From: a virus
Taxonomy: Duplodnaviria; Caudoviricetes
Virus record (IMG/VR): IMGVR_UViG_3300023179_000347
Location: 1 to 31,131 of that record
DNA length: 31,131 nt
Strand: one strand, 5' to 3'
Numbering within the stretch: the first letter of the stretch is position 1; each line of letters begins with the position of its first letter. This document shows positions 10,713 to 31,073 of this stretch, one piece after another. The notes under the pieces are model-generated. The model ran no database searches. It saw only the letters and a program-made list of their open reading frames with translations, and was not told where the DNA came from. The position numbers and the translations under genes are program-made.

Positions 10713-10961
10713 ATGGAAACTAAGATTTACCTGATGTATGGGATTGACACGGCAATGCACCTGCTTCGTCCGGGTGCTAAGTGGGAAATCTCCAACACCA
10801 TGATTACCCGTTGGGAAGACCCGCGCCCGTGTCCTACTTGGGAAGAACTCATGGACACGATGGAGAAGATTAAGGCATTTGAAGATTCCATCAACACCAT
10901 CCTGTTGCCGGAGCAGATTGAACAAATCACCGGCTTTAAGAAGATGATTGAGGCCGCATGA
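10713..10961 (+). CDS. Small fiber-associated protein (XkdW / fiber-chaperone-like)
   Basis: LRPGAKWEI...WEDPRPCPTWEE motif. ATG at 10713, right after the fiber stop, is preferred over the GTG at 10701. Confidence 0.6.
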   Translation: METKIYLMYGIDTAMHLLRPGAKWEISNTMITRWEDPRPCPTWEELMDTMEKIKAFEDSINTILLPEQIEQITGFKKMIEAA

Positions 10962-11542
10962 GGATTGAAACCCTTTTCCCCACGCCTGTAGGGTTTTGGA
11001 ATCTTGTTCTGAACAAGGACGAGATTGACTTTGTTCGTAGTCTTGAACAACGCCCTAACGAGGGAAATACAACAAGTAAGAATAATTATTTGTTGCGTGA
11101 GCCGGAAATGGAGCGGTTGAGTTTGTTTGTTGATAGCTGCCTCGATGAGTACATGAAGGCAACCTACGCGCCTAAGTACGATGTAAAGCCCTATATCACG
11201 CAGTCATGGGCCAACTATACGAAGGCTGGTCAGTATCACCACAAGCACGCACACCCCAATAGCTTCATCTCTGGCTGCGTGTATATCGCTGCCAAGGGCG
11301 ACAAGATTTATTTTTACCGTGATGGGTACCAGCAAATCAAACTGCCAACAGAAAACTGGAACCCATATAACAGTGAGTCTTGGTGGTATGAAGTTAACGA
11401 AGGCGATGTGATTTTATTCCCATCAAGTCTTACACACATGGTTCAAACGGTAGACGGAGAAGAGCGCATCAGCATTGCGTTCAATAGTTTCTTGAAAGGC
11501 ACCATTGGTAGTGCTGATGAATTGACTGAACTGGAGATTTAA
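10958..11542 (+). CDS. 2OG-Fe(II) oxygenase-like protein (TIGR02466-type)
   Basis: LFPTPV N-terminus, SWAN...HxH (HAHPNS), GDVILFPSSLTH and RISIAFN motifs. Confidence 0.85.
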   Translation: MRIETLFPTPVGFWNLVLNKDEIDFVRSLEQRPNEGNTTSKNNYLLREPEMERLSLFVDSCLDEYMKATYAPKYDVKPYITQSWANYTKAGQYHHKHAHPNSFISGCVYIAAKGDKIYFYRDGYQQIKLPTENWNPYNSESWWYEVNEGDVILFPSSLTHMVQTVDGEERISIAFNSFLKGTIGSADELTELEI

Positions 11543-14750: not shown

Positions 14751-15205
14751 TGAATCGTTGGGTATTGGGCGGATTGGCCGGGCTTGTTATGCTCGGTTTT
14801 GTCTATTTTAAGGGCGTCAACCACGGCAAAGAAGTTGTTCAACAGAAGTGGGATGCGTATAAAGTAGCGCAAGAACGCGAAGTTCAAATACTCAAAGACC
14901 AAGCCCGCGAAACAGAACAAATCCTACAAAAAGAAATAAACAAGATTCAGAAGGAAAAAGTTAATGCAAATCAAATTGCTACTACTCGGTACAACGCTCT
15001 CATTAACAGCCTGCGCAAGCGCCCCGAAGCCCGTCAAGACCCAGTGTCCAACGATTCCGGAAGTGGTGTGGGATGTACGGGTGCGGGATTGGCAAGGGGA
15101 GATGCAGAATTTCTTGCTGGGTACGCTGCCGACGCAGCCCGGCTTCAAGCTGCCTATGACTCCTGTCGAGAAGCCTACGAAGTAATACATCATGCCACTC
15201 GGTAA
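14735..15205 (+). CDS. Rz: Inner-membrane spanin (Rz-like)
   Basis: AAGGAG RBS at 14721-14726; N-terminal TM helix, coiled coil and two Cys; follows the endolysin and hosts an embedded lipoprotein ORF. Confidence 0.88.
   Translation: MLGFLMNRWVLGGLAGLVMLGFVYFKGVNHGKEVVQQKWDAYKVAQEREVQILKDQARETEQILQKEINKIQKEKVNANQIATTRYNALINSLRKRPEARQDPVSNDSGSGVGCTGAGLARGDAEFLAGYAADAARLQAAYDSCREAYEVIHHATR
14964..15185 (+). CDS. Rz1: Outer-membrane lipoprotein spanin (Rz1-like), embedded in Rz in the +1 frame
   Basis: Signal peptide with lipobox LTA/C (MQIKLLLLGTTLSLTAC), Pro-rich mature part, AAGGA upstream. Confidence 0.88.
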   Translation: MQIKLLLLGTTLSLTACASAPKPVKTQCPTIPEVVWDVRVRDWQGEMQNFLLGTLPTQPGFKLPMTPVEKPTK

Positions 15206-15671
15206 ACTCGTATTTAAACCCGGCATTAACCGGGACCAAACAAATTACGCTTCCGAGGGTGGTTGGTATGAGTGCGACAAAATTCGGTTTCGTTCTGGAT
15301 TCCCTGAAAAGATTGGTGGTTGGCTTCAATACAATACGACAAGACTAATTGGCGTTTGTCGTTCTTTGTTTTGCTGGATTACAACAGATGGCAATAATCT
15401 TTTAAGCGCCGCAACAAACAAAAAAGTTTATGTGGAGTCCGGAACTCTTGGTTTTGATATTACCCCAGTTAGAATGATATATACCAACCTTGGTATAACT
15501 GGACTTTCGGCAACGGCATCTGTTGGAACTGTAAACGCAGTAATAGGAAACCCTGTTACTGGGGTATCTGCAAATACTTTTGTTGGTAATGAAACTGTTT
15601 ACACGCCATCTACTGTAAATGGAAATTCCGTAACCAGTTATTTGGGTGTGGTTGGAGTGAGAATAACATGA
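15192..15671 (+). CDS. Tail nozzle / packaged-DNA stabilization-like protein, N-terminal part
   Basis: MPLGKLVFKPGINRD...EGGWYECDKIRFRSGFPEKIGGW...DITP is the typical N-terminus of this podovirus tail protein (recalled from homologs). Confidence 0.6.
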   Translation: MPLGKLVFKPGINRDQTNYASEGGWYECDKIRFRSGFPEKIGGWLQYNTTRLIGVCRSLFCWITTDGNNLLSAATNKKVYVESGTLGFDITPVRMIYTNLGITGLSATASVGTVNAVIGNPVTGVSANTFVGNETVYTPSTVNGNSVTSYLGVVGVRIT

Positions 15672-17251
15672 GCATTCTTCAAACCACAATTGGCTCAAAA
15701 GTGGTTACCGTTAACATTCCAAATAATGGAGCGTTAGACGGTGACTATGTTTTATTTTCTGACATTAATACAACTGTTGGTGGTATTCCTTTATCTGAAT
15801 TAAATACCAATCATCTTATTTCAAATGCTTTAGTCAACTCATTTACTATTAGTGTTGAAACTGCCGCTACGTCTACGGCATCTTATGATGGCCCAATAAC
15901 AGCAACATTTGATATTCATTCCGGTAATGAAATTGGCTCATTCGGTTATGGTTGGGGTGCTGGTCCTTGGAGCAGAGGCGCTTGGGGCAGTGGATGGTCT
16001 ATTCCAATTTACCAACCGCCAAGACTTTATACACAAGACCGATTTAATGATGATTTGATTTTCTGCATAAGAAATGCAGACATTTATTACTGGGCTTACG
16101 ACAATACATTTTCAACCCGCGCGGTCCTTATGTCTTCATTGAGTGGCGCAGCGGACGTCCCACAACTTGTTGGCAGCATTTTAATGTCGCAACAAGATAG
16201 ACACTTGATGGCATTTGGATGTACTGCATACGGCAGTAGTGTTTATGACCCGCTATTGATTAGGTGGGCAAGTCAGGATGCGCCTGAGTTTTGGACGCCG
16301 GGAACTGTGACGGTTCCGTCTACCGGACGACTTAGTTCTGCCGGATTCTTTAGATTGACCAATGGCTCTGAAATCATTGCAACAGAACGCACCCGCCAAG
16401 AAATTCTTGTATTTACAGATTCAAGTCTGTATTCAATTCAATATGCCGGAACCGATGCTGTGTTTACAACGCCACAGCAGATGTCTGATAACACATCCAT
16501 TATTTCTCCGGGCGCATCCACTACTGTAAATAACGTTACATATTGGATGGGTATTGATAAATTCTATGCATATAACGGTCGTGTAGAAACTCTTCCGTGT
16601 ACATTGCGTCAATACATATTCCAAGATATTAATCGTGCAGCATCCGACCAAATTGTTTGTGGAACAAACGAACAATTTAATGAAGTCATTTGGTTTTATG
16701 CATCAGAAGATTCTAACGAAGTAAATCGTTACGTTATTTATAACTATTTAGAACAACTTTGGTACTACGGCAGTCTTGTAAGAACTGCTTGGTTGGATTC
16801 TCCTTTGCGTGAATATCCTCAAGCAGCCTCCACCAATGGTTTTCTTTATGACCATGAAAGAGGCACAAATGATGACCTGCTGCCAATGACTTCATATATT
16901 TCGTCTGGTGATATTGACATTCAAGATGGCGACCAGTTTATGTTGATTCGCCGCATCATTCCTGACGTTAATTTCACCGGCACAAATTCAAACACAGCAA
17001 CTGTAAAAATGACTATTAGTCCCAGAAACTTTCCGGGGGCTGCGTATCAAACAAACAATGCAGAAAATACTGGCCTGACAAAAAATGTTGATTTGTCAAC
17101 TACGGTTCCTATTGACCAATATACAAATCAAGTATTTATTAGAGCCAGAGGCAGGCAGATTCGTTACAAAATTGCTTCGGATGAACTTGACGTTCAGTGG
17201 CAACTTGGCATTCCACGCGTTGATGCAAGACCTGATGGCCGGAGGGGATAA
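15668..17251 (+). CDS. Tail nozzle / packaged-DNA stabilization-like protein (P22 gp10 / T7 gp12 analogue), main part
   Basis: Beta-propeller-like motifs DPLLIRWASQ, YWMGIDKFYAYNG, EVIWFY, RTAWLD, RARGRQ and PDGRR; ATGA overlap and GGAG RBS. Confidence 0.7.
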   Translation: MSILQTTIGSKVVTVNIPNNGALDGDYVLFSDINTTVGGIPLSELNTNHLISNALVNSFTISVETAATSTASYDGPITATFDIHSGNEIGSFGYGWGAGPWSRGAWGSGWSIPIYQPPRLYTQDRFNDDLIFCIRNADIYYWAYDNTFSTRAVLMSSLSGAADVPQLVGSILMSQQDRHLMAFGCTAYGSSVYDPLLIRWASQDAPEFWTPGTVTVPSTGRLSSAGFFRLTNGSEIIATERTRQEILVFTDSSLYSIQYAGTDAVFTTPQQMSDNTSIISPGASTTVNNVTYWMGIDKFYAYNGRVETLPCTLRQYIFQDINRAASDQIVCGTNEQFNEVIWFYASEDSNEVNRYVIYNYLEQLWYYGSLVRTAWLDSPLREYPQAASTNGFLYDHERGTNDDLLPMTSYISSGDIDIQDGDQFMLIRRIIPDVNFTGTNSNTATVKMTISPRNFPGAAYQTNNAENTGLTKNVDLSTTVPIDQYTNQVFIRARGRQIRYKIASDELDVQWQLGIPRVDARPDGRRG

Positions 17252-22167: not shown

Positions 22168-25100
22168 ATGCCCGTCAGTATTGACGTCCCCGGTCTTGGG
22201 CCGGTATCTATACCAGACAATGTCCCAGAGGGGCAGGTTGACTCATACATCAATGCTTTAGCAAAAAAGCGTGGGGTAGACATTGCTCCGCCGCCTCCTC
22301 CTGCGCCCAAGTCATACGGCATTGGCGCTGCCGCACAAGATATTGGCGTTAGTGCGCTTGGCCTTGTTCCAAGTGTGGTTGAAACGTTTGCGGAATTCAC
22401 TCCCACAGATAGGGCGCTTGCAGCTATTGGCGCTCAACGTGGCATTGCTGGATTAATGCCAGAAACAGAAATTGGCAAAGACATCAGCAAATATGGTGTT
22501 TTGCGCGGTACTGCAAAATCTTTGCGAGACCTTCAAAAAGATTTATACACAGAACAAGCCCAAGCAGCGCAAAAAGAATTCCAACAAAAACTGGCAGAAC
22601 AAGAAGGCATTGCCGGTCAGGCTGGCGTTGCGTTTAAAGAAACCCTTACAACCCCTGAACTTCTTACTTCGCAGCTTCCCGAGTCGCTGCTGTCGATGAT
22701 TGGCGGGCGTGGCATAGTCAAAGGTGCGGAAAAACTCATCAAGGGCGTTGCCCCCGAGTTTGTCAAAGAAGCCGGTGAAAAAGCCGTTGGCAAGGCAGCA
22801 GAAAAACTTGGTGCAGAACGTGTAGCCAAACTTAAAGAATTCACTGGTGGGCCTGAGACGCTTCGTACCGTTGCCGGTGGCGCTGCCTTGCAGGGCGCAA
22901 GCGTTGCAAACCAAAACTTTATTACAACGATGGATATGCCGCTGGAAAAACTGGCGGCAACTCCCGAGTATCAAGAAGCCATCGAATCAGGCATGACCCC
23001 GGATGAAGCGCGTTTAAGCGTTGCCCGAGGTGCAGCAAATGGTGCCCTTGCTCCTGCAACTGCTCTGTCAATTGTTGCGCAATATGCTGTTCCCGGCGGC
23101 TCGTCGTTTGAACGGCTTTTTGCTGGCGCTACGGAACGTACATTAGGTGCTCAAGGTGCGCTTCAGGTTGCTAAACAGATTGGCAAATCCACGCTCGGTG
23201 AAGCCGGTTCTGAAGCTCTGGAAGAGGGCGGTGGACAGTTTATTTCTAACATCTTTACTCCGGGTCAAGAAGACTTAACCCAAGGCGTTGGCGCTGCTGT
23301 TGGTGCAGCTGGTGCATTGGGCGCACTCATGGGTGGTGGTGCCGGTGGCATTAATGCACTTCAAGCAAGACGCGCACAACAAGTCATCGAAGAGCGTCAG
23401 GCTGAAGAAGAGCGTGCACGGCAAGAACTGGATGCGCGTATGCCTCCGGTTGAACAAATTCAACACCCTGAGCCTGCACAGATTGCTCCAGAACAGGTTC
23501 GTAGCACAGCGCAAGGATTGGTCACAAGTCTTCAGCCGGGTGCAACGTTTAATCTTAATGATATTGTCAATACCTCCGGGCTTGCTGGCGGTGACGCAGC
23601 CGCTGTAGCAAATGACCTTTTAAACAGGGGCGAAATTATCCGTGAACCGGGTGACGCCTTTAGTTTCCGCCGGGTAAATGATAACGAACGGGTAGTTCCA
23701 TTAGGCAACCCGGACCAAAGTTACGTTTATACGGTACCTACAACTCGTGCAGGTTCTGAGATAAATGATGGCTATACCGTTGAATCTTCAGCACTTGGTG
23801 TTGCTAGAGATGTAGCCAACCAAGAAGAAGCAGACAAACTTAAACAGTTGATGTTGGACCGGGCCGGGGAACAGGCCGCTGTCGTAGATGAGCAGATAAA
23901 CAATCTAATCGAACAAGAACGACAGGTTACCCGCACCATTGAAGAAGCAATGCTTCGACCTGAAATCACCAGAGAACAGCTTCAAGGTTTAACTGAATCT
24001 GGCACGCAAGCCAGCGAAAAGATTAAACAAGAGATTGCCAAGCTGGAAGAACAGAAAGCGGCAATTCTTGCCGAGCCTGTTGTTACTCCCATCAATCCCC
24101 GCGCAGAAAACGGCTATGAAGTGCGTTTACACACTCCGGGTGAAGCAGCACGCGTGCTTTCAGGCTTTGCCACCGAACAGGAAGCATATGATGCAATCAT
24201 CGACAACGCTTCTCCCGAACAAGAACGAAGCATTGTTGAAGACCCCGCATACGAAGGCGTTCGCAATCGCTTAGAAGAACGTGCCGCCCAACTTGAAGAA
24301 GCACCTTTAGAAGCACCTTTAGAAGTACCTTTAGAAGCACCCGAAGTAACTCCTGAGATGCAGGAAAAGGTCGAGCTGGTTAGCAATCGTATGCGTACTG
24401 TTCTTGACCAGATGGGTTTAAAGAACATTGGCCTAAATGTTCAACAGCGTCTTCAAGAAGCCGTAAACGGTAAATTAACTGCCGTGGATGGGTATTACCT
24501 CAACCGCGTAATTGCAGCCTCACTGGAAGGCTCTCGTGACGTTACATCCACTATTGGACACGAAACCATCCACGCCCTGCGTGAGCTTGGAATGTTCAGT
24601 GATAAAGAATGGAACATCCTTACCAAGAAGGCTAAGTCTGAATGGATTAAAAAGTACGACATTGAAAGTCGTTACGAAGGCGTAAACCTGAGCGACGAGA
24701 AGGTTATCGAGGAAGCTATCGCAGATGCCTTTGGTAACTGGCTTCAAGGCAATCTTGAGGAACGCGGTGTCGTTGCTGGATTGTTTAACCGCATAAAGCT
24801 GTTCTTACAGAAAGTTGGTGATGTCTTCCGGGGGCAGGGTTTCACCAATAGTGAAGATGTATTTAAACGTGCGCGTACCGGAAAACTTCAGGGTGAGCGT
24901 GCAGCTAAAGAAGGCGAAGGCGCACAATACGCAAAGGATATGGTTGGATTTGTTATGCCGTCTGGCATGGCAAAGTTAAAAGGAGCAGAAGATGTTCGAC
25001 AAGCCGGAGACGGAAGAGGACGGGGCGAGGGCAGCAGATTTGCGCCTCTTGAAGGCGCTACATCAGTCCGAGGTTTTCAAGGCCCAGACCCGCGCCTTGT

Positions 25101-28100
25101 TAGGGTCGCAGAAGACTACGCCCGACGAAATGGAATCCAGTTTAAACGACAGTCAGAGTGGGCAAAAGTAGACCCTGACCGGGCAAAGCGTATTGCTGAT
25201 GCCTATGAAGCAATGGAACACGCGCCAACCGACCCGGTTGTGCGTGAAGCATATGACAATTTAATAAATCAAACAGTTGCTCAGTATCAAGCGCTTGCTG
25301 ATGCCGGGTATAAGTTTTGGTTTATTGATTTAAACAATCCTGAAAACGTTGAGTATTTGTCTAGCCCTTGGAATGCCATGCGTGACATTCGCGCAAACAA
25401 GGAAATGGGCGTGTTCCCGACAAACTATGGGTTTGGTTCTGACGAAGAGTTCAGCCCAGAAGCCAATCCGTTGCTTAAAGACACGGGCATTAAGTGGCCG
25501 GTCGGTGGTGTTGATGGTCCGCTTCAACCGGTCCTTGCCAATGACCTATTTCGCGCTGTACATGATGCGTTCGGCCACGGTCTTGAAGGCGCAGGGTTCC
25601 GTGCAGATGGCGAAGAGAATGCTTGGCAAGCACACCGGAAACTGTTTACTGGTTCTGCGGTTGGTGCAATTACATCTGAAACGCGCGGGCAAAATAGCTG
25701 GTTAAACTTTGGCCCGCATGGCGAAAAGAACAGAAACGCAAAGGTTGAAGACACAATCTTTGCCGACCAGAAAACTGGGTTAATGCCAGAGTGGACATGG
25801 AATGAGGGCATTATTCCTGATGCTCAGTATGCCCTGCCGCGCACGGTTAACGTAGATGGCAAGGAACGTCCAACTGGCATTTTTGATTCATCACAATTAA
25901 AAGTGCTTCAGAACGAAGACTTTGATACCTATAGTGTTTACGGTCCGGATGATGAAAGAATTGGCCCGAAGTTTGAAACCGTTGAGGAAGCGCGCGACCT
26001 AGCAAATAGTTTGTCCAAGCCAATCCACCCAACTGTTGAGGGTGTAGAAAACTTTTGGCGTTGGTTTGGCAATAGCAAGACTGTTAATCGTTTCGGCGTT
26101 CCTCAAGTTTGGTACCACGGTACTGCGCGCGAAATCAGTAAATTTGAACCCAAACAAGCAAAAGCAATATTTCTTACACAAGACCCAGAGTTTGCTGAAG
26201 GTTTTGCTTCTGGTTCAGAGAGGTTTATGATAAGGAATGCCACAAAGTTTGTTGACGAAAAAATTGTAGAACAGGCAATTCGACGCGGAATTTCCAATGC
26301 CGTTGCTGACGGTCAGGTAGGTCGCGCCGCCGCGAATGATTGGCTTAAACACAGAAATGAATGGCAGACGAATGAACTTTTAACTGGCGCTCTTATGTCC
26401 CATATGGGCGACTATGTATCTGATGAAATTAAAAAAGAACTGCCATCTGGTCAAAACATCATTCCTATATTTGTCCGTGCCGAAAAACCATTTGATTACC
26501 GTAATGAAGGACACATTGATGACTTGACTGCTTGGGTAGAGTCTTTGGACAAACAAAATCCTGCGCGCAAATTCATCCTTAAAACTATGGATGAAATTGA
26601 AAATGGCGCGTGGGACCGTATTGAATCGCCCGCTGTTCAATCCTTCTTAAAGGAACGCGGCTACGATTCTTTCTTTGTTTCCGAAGGTGGCAAAAAGAAT
26701 CTTGCAGTTTATGACCCGAATCAAGTCAAGTCTGCCGTTGGTAACACGGGTGCGTTTAGCCGTGACTCCGGTGAGATTCAATATGCCCTGCCATTAAACC
26801 GCGAGGAACGAGATGAAATTGTTCGACGCGCTAAGGGCGACCGCGAGCTTGCAATCAAGATGCTTGGTTTTGCCAAGAACATGACGCCAGCAGAACGGAA
26901 TAAGTTAAGCCGTGCAAATGCAGTCAAGATGATTGACTTGCTTGGAACTTTCCCGGATGTTGATGAGTACGCTGCTGTTGCTTACGCTGGCCGTGCCAAG
27001 CGTGGCTGGTATGAAAACTCTGCAAAGGCACTTGTTACCGTATTTGGTAATGATGCCCCACGTTTCGCTGCGCTACTTGCCGCGCTATCACCCCAGTGTT
27101 CCGTTCAGACAAATCTTTTAAACGCACTCAATCTTTGGAAAAACTGGACCGCAGCAGGCCGCCCGCTGGAACGCAGAAAAATCATGGAGATTGCTGGCCG
27201 TTCAGTTCAAGGCAACAAGGGTGAAAAATCTGTTCTTGAGGCGTGGCAAAACAATTCCGTCAGGGCGCTTACAATTCCCGATGTAAACAAGTTGGTTCTT
27301 TCTGGCCCGAAGGTAAACTCGTTTTTCCGAAACTTGGTTGGCGTTACGGATGAGGTAACCAATGACGCATGGATGGCAAATTTTGCTTTCATCGACCAAG
27401 AGCTGTTTAAAGGTGAATTAAACAAAGCTGAAACAGAACCCGGCAAACGTCCGGGATACATGACCCAAAGCGTAATTGTTCGCCGTGCGGCAGACCGTTT
27501 AACCAAACTCACTGGTGAAAAGTGGACGCCAGCAGAAATTCAAGAAACAGTTTGGTCATGGGCTAAGGCTTTGTACGAAGGCGCCGAAAAGGAAGGCATT
27601 AGCGCCGCTCAATTTCTTACGGAAAAGAAACTTACAGACGAACTTATCAACAGCGTTCCTGACTTCAACAGCTTATTCTTTGACGAAGTCTATGAATCTA
27701 TTTTGCGTGGGGCGGGATATGGAAAACAACTTGACGAACTTGTACAACAGCGCAACCGAAATCGCGCAGAGCTATCAAAAGAAGAGCAAGACACTTATGG
27801 CGAAGCAAAACCATTTGGTTCAATTACTCAAGAAAAACTTGAAAAATCCGCAGCAGCGCGTCTTGACCGACTTAAGCAAAAACGAAAAGAAAGCGGTGTA
27901 GAAGAGCAGTTTGCTCTTCCGCAAAACATTCTTGGTCAGCCCGCACGTTTACCAACTTGGAACATCCCAACTGACTCCAAGTTGGACGATACAATTTATT
28001 ACTTGCAGGACAAGATGATTGACCTCAAAAAGGTCATTCAAGAGATTACTAAAATCGCCGGTAATATTGCTGATAGGTGGAATCCATACCTTCAGGAAGA

Positions 28101-30618
28101 GCTTTACCACGGTCGTACCGCGCAGCAGACAGAGCGTTTCCTGCGTACTGAGTTGCGCCCGCTGTTGACTGACCTTGCTAAACACAACATCACCATTACC
28201 GAATTTGAAGAGTTCCTGCACAACCGCCACGCCAAAGAACGTAATGACCAGATTGCCAGCATCAATCCTTCGATGCCGGATGCAGGTTCTGGCATTTCAA
28301 CTCAGGCTGCACAAAACTATTTAAACGCACTGCCACCGGCGCGCCGTCGTCTGTTGAACTCGATTGCACAAAAGGTCGATGACATCAATCGTGGCACCCG
28401 TCAGATTCTTGTTAAGTCTGGTCTTGAAACACCGCAGACGATTGCATCATGGGAGCAGACTTACCCCAACTATGTACCGTTGTTCCGTGAGGATGCAGAT
28501 TATGTGACCTCATCCGGATATGGCGTTGGTCAGGGATTTAACATTCGCGGTGAATTCTCAAAGCGGGCCACAGGTTCCACGCGGAACGTTGTAGACATTA
28601 TGGCGAACATAGTGATGCAACGTGAGCGCGCAATTGTTCGCGCCGAAAAGAATCGTGTGGCAAAGGCTTTGTATGGTCTGGCAGTACAGAACCCCAATCA
28701 AAAATTCTGGATGCCTATTGACCCCGAGGCAATCAAAAATCCAAATCAGATTCGTAATGAAATCATTGCAATGGGCATTAGTCCCAATGATTTGCAAAAC
28801 ATTTTTCAACAGCCGACCAAGCCAACTCTAGACCCAAGGACTGGGCTTGTCACTAACAAACTTGACCCGTTTGTTTTAAACAGCGACAACGTATTGGCTG
28901 TTCGGATTGATGGACGCAATCATTACTTGCTGTTTAACAATAACGAACCGCGCAGCAAACGCATGGTTACCGCCCTAAAGAATCTTGACGCTGACCAACT
29001 TGGTCGCGTGATGAATTTAATGGGCAAGATTAGTCGCTGGGTATCAAAAATTAACACTCAGTACAACCCTATTTTTGGTGTTGTCAACTTATTCCGTGAC
29101 GTACAAGGTGCCGTACTTAATCTATCCACTACCCCGATTGCTAAAAAAACCAAAGAGGTTATGAATTTAAATAACCTTACGGATGCAATGGGTGCAATCT
29201 GGAGTGTTTCCCGCGCAGAACGAAACAATAGCCGAATGCCCAATACACAATGGGCAAAGCTCTGGCAAGAATTTCAGGAAGAAGGCGGTCAGACTGGCTA
29301 CCGCAGCCAATACAGCAGCGCACAAGAACGCGCTGATGCGCTTCAAGATGAAATCAAAAAGATTTCTGAAGGTAAGTTAAGTCGTGCTGGTCGAGCCATG
29401 TTTGATGTCCTCAATGACTACAACACCTCGATGGAAAACGCGGTGCGTTTAAGCGCATACAAGGTGGCACTTGATAGCGGATTGTCAAAAGAACAAGCGG
29501 CTAGCGTCGCCAAGAATCTTACGGTCAACTTTAACCGTAAGGGTAAAATTGCAACTCAGGCTGGTGCGTTGTATTCGTTCTTTAATGCATCCATTCAAGG
29601 TACTGCGCGTTTAATTGAAACGATGGCCGGACCCGCCGGAAAAAAGATTCTTCTCGGTGGTTTTTTGCTTGGTGCAGTACAAGCAGCAATGCTTGCTGCC
29701 GCAGGATTCGATGATGATGAACCCCCTGAGTTCATCAAAGAACGCAACTTCATTATCCCGATAGGCGGGAAAAAGTACATCTCGATTCCGTTGCCGCTTG
29801 GGTATAACGTGATTCCCAACTTCACCCGCCATCTTGCTGAGATTGGAATTTCTGGTGGTAAAAACATTAATGACCACATCGTTGGCATCACGGGTTCTTT
29901 TATTGAATCATTTAACCCGATTGGTGGTGCTGGCTGGTCGTTGCAAACTCTTTTTCCCACGGCTCTTGACCCGTTTATTGCACTGGCAGAAAACAAAGAT
30001 TCTTTTGGTCGCCCGATTTACAGGGAAAACTTTTCCAATCTTGACCCCACGCCGGGTTATCTGCGTACCAAAGATTCGGCCACAGCGTTTAGCAAAGGTC
30101 TGTCAGAGTTTTTAAACGCAGCAAGCGGCGGCACAAAGTACAAGCCGGGGGTTGTTGATGTCACCCCCGACCAGATTGACTACTTGCTTGGTCAGGTTGG
30201 TGGTGGCGTGTTCCGCGAACTTCAGAAGACCGAGCAAACCGTTACAGGCGCTATCACTGGGGAAGAAGTCGCACCATACAAGATTCCGCTTGTTGGTCGT
30301 TTCTATGGGGATGCAGAATCTAACGCGGCCAAATCGCAGCTTTTCTACAAAAACATTGAACGTTTAAATGAACACGAAAACGAAATCAAGGGTCGTTTGA
30401 AGAATCGTGAACCAATTGCTGAATACATCAAAGAAAATCCAGAAGCTCGTTTAATCAAGATGAGCAACAGTATTGAGTACAACATTCGCAAGTTAAAGCA
30501 ACGCCGCGAACTATTGAAAGCGCGCGGCGGCAATGAACAGGCTATCAAGAATATTAACGACAGCATTGTTCGCTTGATGGTTCGCTTAAACGAACAAGTA
30601 GAAAAAGCGCAGGATTAA
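22168..30618 (+). CDS. Large polyvalent virion protein (zincin metallopeptidase + HDxxGH domain + ADP-ribosyltransferase-like + glycosylase-like + LPD38-like)
   Basis: 2816 aa. HETIH at 24559-24573 with downstream EEAIADAF; HDAFGH at 25561; WFGNSK...WYHGT...GYDS...DPNQVKS at about 26060-26740; WY...ALSPQ...GPKVNSF...VTNDAWM at about 27000-27560; KERNFIIP...IPLPLG...NKDSFGRPI at about 29730-30020. Confidence 0.9.
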   Translation: MPVSIDVPGLGPVSIPDNVPEGQVDSYINALAKKRGVDIAPPPPPAPKSYGIGAAAQDIGVSALGLVPSVVETFAEFTPTDRALAAIGAQRGIAGLMPETEIGKDISKYGVLRGTAKSLRDLQKDLYTEQAQAAQKEFQQKLAEQEGIAGQAGVAFKETLTTPELLTSQLPESLLSMIGGRGIVKGAEKLIKGVAPEFVKEAGEKAVGKAAEKLGAERVAKLKEFTGGPETLRTVAGGAALQGASVANQNFITTMDMPLEKLAATPEYQEAIESGMTPDEARLSVARGAANGALAPATALSIVAQYAVPGGSSFERLFAGATERTLGAQGALQVAKQIGKSTLGEAGSEALEEGGGQFISNIFTPGQEDLTQGVGAAVGAAGALGALMGGGAGGINALQARRAQQVIEERQAEEERARQELDARMPPVEQIQHPEPAQIAPEQVRSTAQGLVTSLQPGATFNLNDIVNTSGLAGGDAAAVANDLLNRGEIIREPGDAFSFRRVNDNERVVPLGNPDQSYVYTVPTTRAGSEINDGYTVESSALGVARDVANQEEADKLKQLMLDRAGEQAAVVDEQINNLIEQERQVTRTIEEAMLRPEITREQLQGLTESGTQASEKIKQEIAKLEEQKAAILAEPVVTPINPRAENGYEVRLHTPGEAARVLSGFATEQEAYDAIIDNASPEQERSIVEDPAYEGVRNRLEERAAQLEEAPLEAPLEVPLEAPEVTPEMQEKVELVSNRMRTVLDQMGLKNIGLNVQQRLQEAVNGKLTAVDGYYLNRVIAASLEGSRDVTSTIGHETIHALRELGMFSDKEWNILTKKAKSEWIKKYDIESRYEGVNLSDEKVIEEAIADAFGNWLQGNLEERGVVAGLFNRIKLFLQKVGDVFRGQGFTNSEDVFKRARTGKLQGERAAKEGEGAQYAKDMVGFVMPSGMAKLKGAEDVRQAGDGRGRGEGSRFAPLEGATSVRGFQGPDPRLVRVAEDYARRNGIQFKRQSEWAKVDPDRAKRIADAYEAMEHAPTDPVVREAYDNLINQTVAQYQALADAGYKFWFIDLNNPENVEYLSSPWNAMRDIRANKEMGVFPTNYGFGSDEEFSPEANPLLKDTGIKWPVGGVDGPLQPVLANDLFRAVHDAFGHGLEGAGFRADGEENAWQAHRKLFTGSAVGAITSETRGQNSWLNFGPHGEKNRNAKVEDTIFADQKTGLMPEWTWNEGIIPDAQYALPRTVNVDGKERPTGIFDSSQLKVLQNEDFDTYSVYGPDDERIGPKFETVEEARDLANSLSKPIHPTVEGVENFWRWFGNSKTVNRFGVPQVWYHGTAREISKFEPKQAKAIFLTQDPEFAEGFASGSERFMIRNATKFVDEKIVEQAIRRGISNAVADGQVGRAAANDWLKHRNEWQTNELLTGALMSHMGDYVSDEIKKELPSGQNIIPIFVRAEKPFDYRNEGHIDDLTAWVESLDKQNPARKFILKTMDEIENGAWDRIESPAVQSFLKERGYDSFFVSEGGKKNLAVYDPNQVKSAVGNTGAFSRDSGEIQYALPLNREERDEIVRRAKGDRELAIKMLGFAKNMTPAERNKLSRANAVKMIDLLGTFPDVDEYAAVAYAGRAKRGWYENSAKALVTVFGNDAPRFAALLAALSPQCSVQTNLLNALNLWKNWTAAGRPLERRKIMEIAGRSVQGNKGEKSVLEAWQNNSVRALTIPDVNKLVLSGPKVNSFFRNLVGVTDEVTNDAWMANFAFIDQELFKGELNKAETEPGKRPGYMTQSVIVRRAADRLTKLTGEKWTPAEIQETVWSWAKALYEGAEKEGISAAQFLTEKKLTDELINSVPDFNSLFFDEVYESILRGAGYGKQLDELVQQRNRNRAELSKEEQDTYGEAKPFGSITQEKLEKSAAARLDRLKQKRKESGVEEQFALPQNILGQPARLPTWNIPTDSKLDDTIYYLQDKMIDLKKVIQEITKIAGNIADRWNPYLQEELYHGRTAQQTERFLRTELRPLLTDLAKHNITITEFEEFLHNRHAKERNDQIASINPSMPDAGSGISTQAAQNYLNALPPARRRLLNSIAQKVDDINRGTRQILVKSGLETPQTIASWEQTYPNYVPLFREDADYVTSSGYGVGQGFNIRGEFSKRATGSTRNVVDIMANIVMQRERAIVRAEKNRVAKALYGLAVQNPNQKFWMPIDPEAIKNPNQIRNEIIAMGISPNDLQNIFQQPTKPTLDPRTGLVTNKLDPFVLNSDNVLAVRIDGRNHYLLFNNNEPRSKRMVTALKNLDADQLGRVMNLMGKISRWVSKINTQYNPIFGVVNLFRDVQGAVLNLSTTPIAKKTKEVMNLNNLTDAMGAIWSVSRAERNNSRMPNTQWAKLWQEFQEEGGQTGYRSQYSSAQERADALQDEIKKISEGKLSRAGRAMFDVLNDYNTSMENAVRLSAYKVALDSGLSKEQAASVAKNLTVNFNRKGKIATQAGALYSFFNASIQGTARLIETMAGPAGKKILLGGFLLGAVQAAMLAAAGFDDDEPPEFIKERNFIIPIGGKKYISIPLPLGYNVIPNFTRHLAEIGISGGKNINDHIVGITGSFIESFNPIGGAGWSLQTLFPTALDPFIALAENKDSFGRPIYRENFSNLDPTPGYLRTKDSATAFSKGLSEFLNAASGGTKYKPGVVDVTPDQIDYLLGQVGGGVFRELQKTEQTVTGAITGEEVAPYKIPLVGRFYGDAESNAAKSQLFYKNIERLNEHENEIKGRLKNREPIAEYIKENPEARLIKMSNSIEYNIRKLKQRRELLKARGGNEQAIKNINDSIVRLMVRLNEQVEKAQD
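24298..24342 (+). repeat. 12-bp tandem repeat GAAG(C/T)ACCTTTA, about 3.7 copies, encoding EAPL-EAPL-EVPL-EAP
   Basis: Read directly from the sequence; lies in the linker just before the metallopeptidase domain. Confidence 0.9.
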
Positions 30619-30782: not shown

Positions 30783-31073
30783 TTATTTAACCACCAACCG
30801 TTTGGTTTTGAAAAGATGAAGCAGTGTCGTTTCATGCGCCTTTTGCCATAGGTCAATGCGTTCTTCTTTTGACAGCTTGGAACCTTGGTCAATCTCGTGA
30901 TGGCAACGACTACATAGGAAGGCTATGAAGCAGTCGTGTGCCTTGATGCTCATGCCCTTGCCGTGTCGGCTTTGATTAGAGTGGGCTGAAACTATTGTGC
31001 CGTCATCAGCCCCACAGTTCATGCAGGGCTGGCCTTCGGCTGAGTCGGTGAGTTTTTTGTTGCGGTAGTTCAA
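30783..31073 (-). CDS. DUF1364 / YbcO-like Zn-binding His-Me nuclease-domain protein
   Basis: YRNKKL...CMNCG...VSAHSN...GKGMSIKAHD...LCSRCHHEID; TTG start overlaps an upstream TGA. Confidence 0.8.
   Translation of the reverse strand: MNYRNKKLTDSAEGQPCMNCGADDGTIVSAHSNQSRHGKGMSIKAHDCFIAFLCSRCHHEIDQGSKLSKEERIDLWQKAHETTLLHLFKTKRLVVK

Follow-up and report, generated by a model that had tools for sequence, protein, structure and literature searches.

A giant polyvalent protein and its modules

The window considered here, a 31,131-nt stretch making up positions 1 to 31,131 of IMG/VR virus record IMGVR_UViG_3300023179_000347 (Duplodnaviria; Caudoviricetes), is a fragment of the genome of a freshwater phage. 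The sequencing run that holds this DNA best comes from lake water and may be its source. Its giant gene (22168..30618, on the plus strand, as are all the parts of it described below) encodes P0001, a protein of 2816 amino acids (aa) by translation of the open reading frame (ORF), in which an N-terminal region is followed by an HExxH...E zincin-like domain, three middle modules and an LPD38 end. Four short peptides related to QYALP, termed tags in what follows, stand at joints between these parts, and in relatives of P0001 the tag differs with the clade of the protease-like domain. Tail, tail-fibre, lysis and virion structural matches to PHROG profiles lie upstream on the same strand, which places the giant gene among virion genes; P0001 is likely to be packaged in the virion and ejected.

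P0001 belongs to the polyvalent proteins of phages. ART-PolyVal, DUF7178 and LPD38 all score above their Pfam cut-offs in a single chain, in line with the initial annotation, which likened the protein to phage polyvalent proteins with their metallopeptidase, ADP-ribosyltransferase (ART) and LPD domains, and the domain content is a mosaic of exchangeable parts among relatives, LPD38 ends alternating with LPD39 ends. The N-terminal region (22168..24339, aa 1-724) has no significant Pfam family and is common to many homologues with differing protease clades. The zincin-like domain, of MPTase type, follows (24349..24897, approximately aa 728-910), with the HExxH motif and downstream glutamate of this class: HETIH lies at nt 24559-24573 (aa 798-802) and E848/E849 at nt 24709-24714. 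H798, E799, H802, E848 and E849 are invariant in 33/33, 47/47 and 55/55 aligned sequences.

Module 1 (24940..25824, aa 925-1219) is conserved, being found in 74 viral loci at 32-79% identity and spread over many giant proteins, and it gave no match in Pfam or PDB searches. A relative forms a separate 433-aa gene in mycobacteriophage Ronan, and the module is present in cluster-C-type mycobacteriophage genes. HDxxGH (aa 1132-1137) and EE (aa 1149-1150) are invariant, the invariant stretches overall being HDxFGH, EENA and ETRGQNS; module 1 is likely to be a metal-dependent enzyme. Module 2 (25840..26778, aa 1225-1537) matches ART-PolyVal (PF18760, E 6.5e-18; 66.3 bits against a curated cut-off of 31.2) and is a predicted ADP-ribosyltransferase; of the modules that the initial annotation took for anti-host effectors, it alone falls in a family that has a name and for which an activity has been proposed. 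Module 3 (26794..27906, aa 1543-1913) matches DUF7178 (PF23802, E 5.3e-12), as do 20/20 of its aligned members; a PDB search with it gave no match. The C-terminal module (27922..30618, aa 1919-2816) contains LPD38 at aa 2517-2709 (PF18857, E 1.3e-42) and one hydrophobic segment (aa 2493-2514, by hydropathy); of 8000 candidates, 3063 are homologous to it at E<=1e-30. A contig from another study covers nt 24537-26205 of the window, which rules out misassembly as the origin of the order protease, module 1, module 2.

Tags at the module joints

The tags are QYAKD (tag 1, 24925..24939, aa 920), in the linker behind the protease-like domain, where model confidence is low; QYALP (tag 2, 25825..25839, aa 1220), where alignments end at aa 1219-1224; QYALP again (tag 3, 26779..26793, aa 1538), behind the ART profile match, which stops at aa 1530; and QFALP (tag 4, 27907..27921, aa 1914), with alignment ends at aa 1898-1915. 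They mark off segments of 300, 318, 376 and 903 aa. Recomputation returned exactly the ORF, the five motif positions, the HETIH position and the segment lengths given in the initial annotation. A scan of 28 further ORFs (7037 aa) found no tag. The motif had been written as Q[YF]A[LV]P: its recurrence stands, its consensus does not, QYAKD being a misfit, and the conserved core is rather [QK][YFH]A. This core is present in 19/21 first linkers of close homologues, the two exceptions being one QCA and one KYE, and the modules behind it are unrelated to one another among these 21 proteins.

That the four downstream copies of the motif fall at domain boundaries, as had been proposed, is borne out by the homologues. 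Local alignments of at least 55% identity and at least 150 aa were taken for the 20 closest of 45 homologues and their internal ends counted: 22/29 are no more than 10 aa away from one of the four tags, against an expected 3%, these ends stemming from shared events and not being independent. Under these thresholds the ends group at 922, 1220 and 1898-1915; it takes alignments of lower identity to show ends at the 1538 tag (1540-1549). The fifth, upstream candidate, AQYAVP (QYAVP at 23080..23094, aa 305), has to be set aside as a look-alike rather than a joint: none of the 29 ends lies within 20 aa of it, the site sits inside a conserved N-terminal stretch, QYA[VI]P is found there in 8 close relatives only, and the distant consensus is QxLPGG. 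The four downstream tags mark true module joints, and modules are exchanged there. The LPD39-type C-terminal end of relatives begins with LFA[VT]P where tag 4 sits, replacing LPD38, and one contig of run X7 carries a different upstream sequence as far as nt 25824, with tag 2 starting at the next base. As a separate observation, L100:9368-11983 encodes a protein of 871 aa that has no protease motif and in which DUF7178 is flanked by FAVP and FSLP, by chance or as a relic.

Tags and protease clades

Among 59 relatives below 75% identity, drawn from 137 domain hits, a relaxed tag pattern, picked after the data had been seen, gave 141 matches against 34 in shuffles (at most 49 among 200). It was matched in 41/59 relatives, with at least three matches in 27/59, and positions 3-5 of the tag agree within proteins (p 5e-4, 0.0025 and 5e-4). 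Even where the identity of two protease domains is down to about 30%, tags persist. On the same modules, relatives of other protease clades bear RYSLR, RYQR, [VI]LxQ, [YF]MPA or ASNRA instead. Across the 74 loci of module 1, the tag next to cores 60-77% identical to that of P0001 varies with the type of HExxH motif in the protein concerned: [VI]LxQ-type tags stand behind the module in HExxH[FY]xL proteins, [YF]MPA flanks it on both sides in HELFHALE proteins, as does ASNRA in HE[VG][VF]H proteins, and R[LMF]S tags also follow the core in some loci.

When the N-termini, proteases and C-termini of 288 proteins were each clustered on their own, the HExTHLLK clade proved to span 5 N-terminal clusters and the HETGHFFL clade 4, the tag type being kept wherever the anchor was readable; conversely, a single N-terminal cluster bears several protease clades, each with different tags. 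In the proteins compared, the tag tracks the protease clade better than it tracks either end of the protein. P0062 and P0070 are 93% identical downstream and differ in their proteases, the tag being IRYS in the one and INYS in the other, and the change from IRYS to IN[YFMA] is found in 8/8 examined proteins of that protease clade. A joint-matching test, with windows anchored without the motif and at non-homologous joints, used the 217/269 proteins that had exactly one motif. The ART end compared with the module-1 end over 8 clades gave 14.15 within against 10.2 between protease clades (permutation p 5e-5), and the ART end compared with the start of the C-terminal module over 7 clades gave 17.07 within against 11.69 between (p 2.5e-4), the clades being related and hence not independent in these permutations. 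The check proposed in the initial annotation, namely whether homologues have boundary motifs of their own that co-vary with the protease, comes out in its favour. P0001 and its relatives share with self-processing polyproteins a motif that recurs at domain joints and, with exceptions, varies with the embedded protease. One relative, from a Zoogloea metagenome-assembled genome (L199), is divided over two ORFs: HExxH lies in the first, and RYSRRR in the second, ahead of the C-terminal module.

Other genes of the window deserve a brief mention. At 15192-17251, two adjoining ORFs of 159 and 527 aa, in different frames, overlap at ATGA; they match the respective halves of the same PHROG 3287 profile, and likewise successive portions of an undivided 734-aa gene in L001, and may be a split gene or the result of a frameshift. 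A 2OG-Fe(II) oxygenase gene (10958-11542; PHROG 81) lies amid the tail genes, and an HNH endonuclease-like ORF (30783-31073, minus strand) lies beyond the giant gene on the opposite strand.

Probable cutting or possible docking, and what would follow

What can be read from the sequences inclines us, with some reserve, to regard as probable that the tags are cut sites of the HExxH...E zincin-like domain of P0001 itself, freeing separate enzymes. The whole chain would be packed into the head as one piece and then ejected, the protease being switched on in the head or, more likely, upon refolding after ejection. Cutting of a bond in or beside [QK]-[YFH]-A would then free module 1, ART and DUF7178 from the N-terminal part and from the LPD38 end. 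One conserved module would have different flanks in different proteins because an incoming module would be retained only if it bears the tag of its host protein.

Some observations limit this reading and others weigh against it. Q[YF]A[LV]P has 4 copies in P0001, at least 2 being found in 0/20,000 shuffles, and Q[YF]A has 5, equalled in 41/20,000; yet, once correction is made for the post-hoc choice of the motif, some degenerate 5-mer recurs at least 3 times in 73/500 shuffles, so that the count alone proves little and by itself is weak support, the real support coming from position in the alignments. Five relatives were inspected at the joint that follows module 3, and none has a tag there. 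The third joint comparison, over 3 clades, did not reach significance; no more than 4/8 and 4/7 rows of the joint matching had their own clade as the best; and two other protease clades share one tag, DIRYQR. Of the zincin domain claimed in the initial annotation, the invariant residues hold and the fold, a three-stranded sheet with flanking helices, is putative: two structure models gave no zincin fold, and the Pfam match to Peptidase_M13 is weak (E 0.11).

Proteins lacking HExxH bear on the reading in both directions. The motif is absent from 50/161 proteins, 46 of which have HExxxH and one of which begins inside the domain; the remaining 3 include P0047, which has three tags and no protease motif. 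In 9 of 13 further giant proteins with neither HExxH nor HExxxH, three tag patterns were not in excess, which counts for cutting, though tags of their own could escape these patterns. L010, L034 and L035, equally devoid of both motifs, have repeated [GQ]YSI tags, and in L045 (ORF from 7322, aa ~670) EEVFH replaces HELFH within a domain sharing 54% identity with its counterpart in L040, while S[YF]AR tags are kept. A family found via L010 (L010:6797-7399, P0158-P0198) has [EQ]Exx[EH] plus a later glutamate at the place of the protease; in its core the second glutamate is present in 30/30, the later one in 30/30 and a glutamate at the fifth position in 28/30, and it keeps strongly enriched tags, [YF]S[ILV]. 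The domain of this EExxE...E family is possibly an all-acidic metal-site variant and may be kin to the zincins. Either it is active with acidic ligands or it binds tags without cutting, its invariant glutamates suggesting the former. The proposal that the motif is the site of the resident protease draws its strength from joint position and clade co-variation, and meets its difficulty in this family.

Polyproteins of RNA viruses combine one chain, a repeated junction motif and an embedded protease, and their cleavage is proven; they differ from P0001 in having unrelated protease types and cargo. The analogy was drawn in PMC5512222 (Iyer et al., 2017), where self-processing was predicted for polyvalent proteins with a zincin-like MPTase. 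P0001 resembles these in its multi-domain make-up with HExxH...E, ART-PolyVal and LPD38, and HExxxH variants are described there; by contrast, a recognition site or linker motif is not named in the available text, and neither clade-specific tags nor the EExxE variant figure in its section 8. In the crAss-like phage phi14:2, gp65/gp66/gp67 and fused polyproteins likewise combine fusion into a virion polyprotein, a zincin-like domain and suggested cleavage; they differ in their RNA polymerase cargo, and the available part of the preprint leaves cleavage open and names no site (bioRxiv 10.1101/2020.03.07.982082). DdrB of phage P1 is processed before packaging, self-cleavage being no more than suggested, which counts for cutting. 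Three other systems add to the points on the opposite side. The last ~880 aa of P0001 are 30% identical to the giant protein of phi24B (LPD38-type end), gp47, which has been found in virions and for which a role in ejection was proposed; the phi24B authors give its peptidase a role in peptidoglycan breakdown, processing being unreported in the available part of their text (bioRxiv 10.64898/2026.04.10.717836). The phi24B protein differs from P0001 in its middle modules (LPD5, LPD1 and MuF-C) and has two HExxH motifs. Its gene (L002:3394-11817) also encodes [FQY]YSR at aa 1461, 1692 and 1893, beside Pfam boundaries; four YSR copies arise in 4/5000 shuffles, for a pattern picked post hoc. N4 vRNAP (gp50), like P0001 a giant ejected beads-on-a-string protein with an HExxH domain, is described as staying intact when recombinant and as working as an RNAP-CTD (C-terminal domain) assembly (PMC13434306); its profile likeness to the zincin-like domain of P0001 is weak (E 0.01 for one sequence), and its linkers have none of four tag patterns. 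ArdC with the E229A change is reported to retain function (PMC7213743).

All the co-variation would be accounted for equally well if the tags docked on the zincin-like domain without a cut, the domain ordering the modules, keeping them unfolded or silencing them for packaging and ejection. We take this to be unlikely, if worthy of serious attention. Docking accommodates the tags that persist with EExxE/EExxH domains devoid of zinc histidines, the requirement of the MPTase region for encapsidation of N4 vRNAP, said to be packaged whole (PMC5512222), and an ArdC active site reported as dispensable for its tested role (PMC7213743). A mere groove, however, would not need the glutamate of general-base type and the third-ligand glutamate, which are invariant in 47/47 HExxH and 30/30 EExxE sequences, and a single domain would need to hold up to six tags per chain. 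Cutting by some other protease of host or phage origin, or by module 1 with its HDxxGH...EE, strikes us as quite improbable. To be sure, P0047 is tagged without a protease motif, module 1 has invariant residues of metal-ligand type, and the window is part of a phage genome, the rest of which may encode other proteases; yet the tag tracks the resident protease clade, HExxH occurs in no other scanned ORF of the window, most tagged relatives do without module 1, proteins with module 1 bear many different tags, and module 1 does not resemble the zincin domain in profile comparison.

It would be very surprising if the tags were relics of DNA shuffling, short homologies for cassette recombination without function in the protein. 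Exchange points do lie at or within the tag, and tags 2 and 3 share 13/15 bases; however, third positions, silent ones included, and whole codons differ among the copies, a signal at the level of the protein, and the Y/F/L/H and L/V/I swaps are conservative. A 15-nt relic would decay, whereas tags are kept at about 30% identity of the protease domain and track its clade. We give hardly any credence to the tags being structural ends of adjoining domains, such as a tail of ART-PolyVal, alike through shared ancestry: ART domains are widely followed by an I-x-[YF]-S-like tail and related clades share related tags, but within one protein a given tag stands behind unrelated modules, and a given module end has unrelated tags elsewhere. 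Another protease, DNA relics and domain tails fit worse than cutting or docking.

The family and the idea of its self-processing were already known (PMC5512222; bioRxiv 10.1101/2020.03.07.982082; PMC9503650); junction tags or a link between tag and protease clade were not found described in a literature search for which supplements and subscription papers were out of reach. The self-processing prediction of 2017 had no site, and the tags supply exact residues and peptides; specific as they are to each clade, they permit a test of cross-specificity. If the domain merely binds the tags, they would be a packaging or ejection signal new to the papers found. As for cutting, we hold it tentatively possible that the built-in zincin-like clades, including the all-acidic EExxE...E type, each cut their own tag, in a shared protease-tag code where the tag may be read from the sequence alone, predicts for thousands of giant phage proteins the mature effectors and serves as a socket for the exchange of effector cassettes. 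If this is true, the mature products of very common phage ejection proteins, with more than 3000 relatives of the C-terminal module, would become predictable, modules without known function could be excised at their natural ends, and a set of sequence-specific proteases would come with candidate sites.
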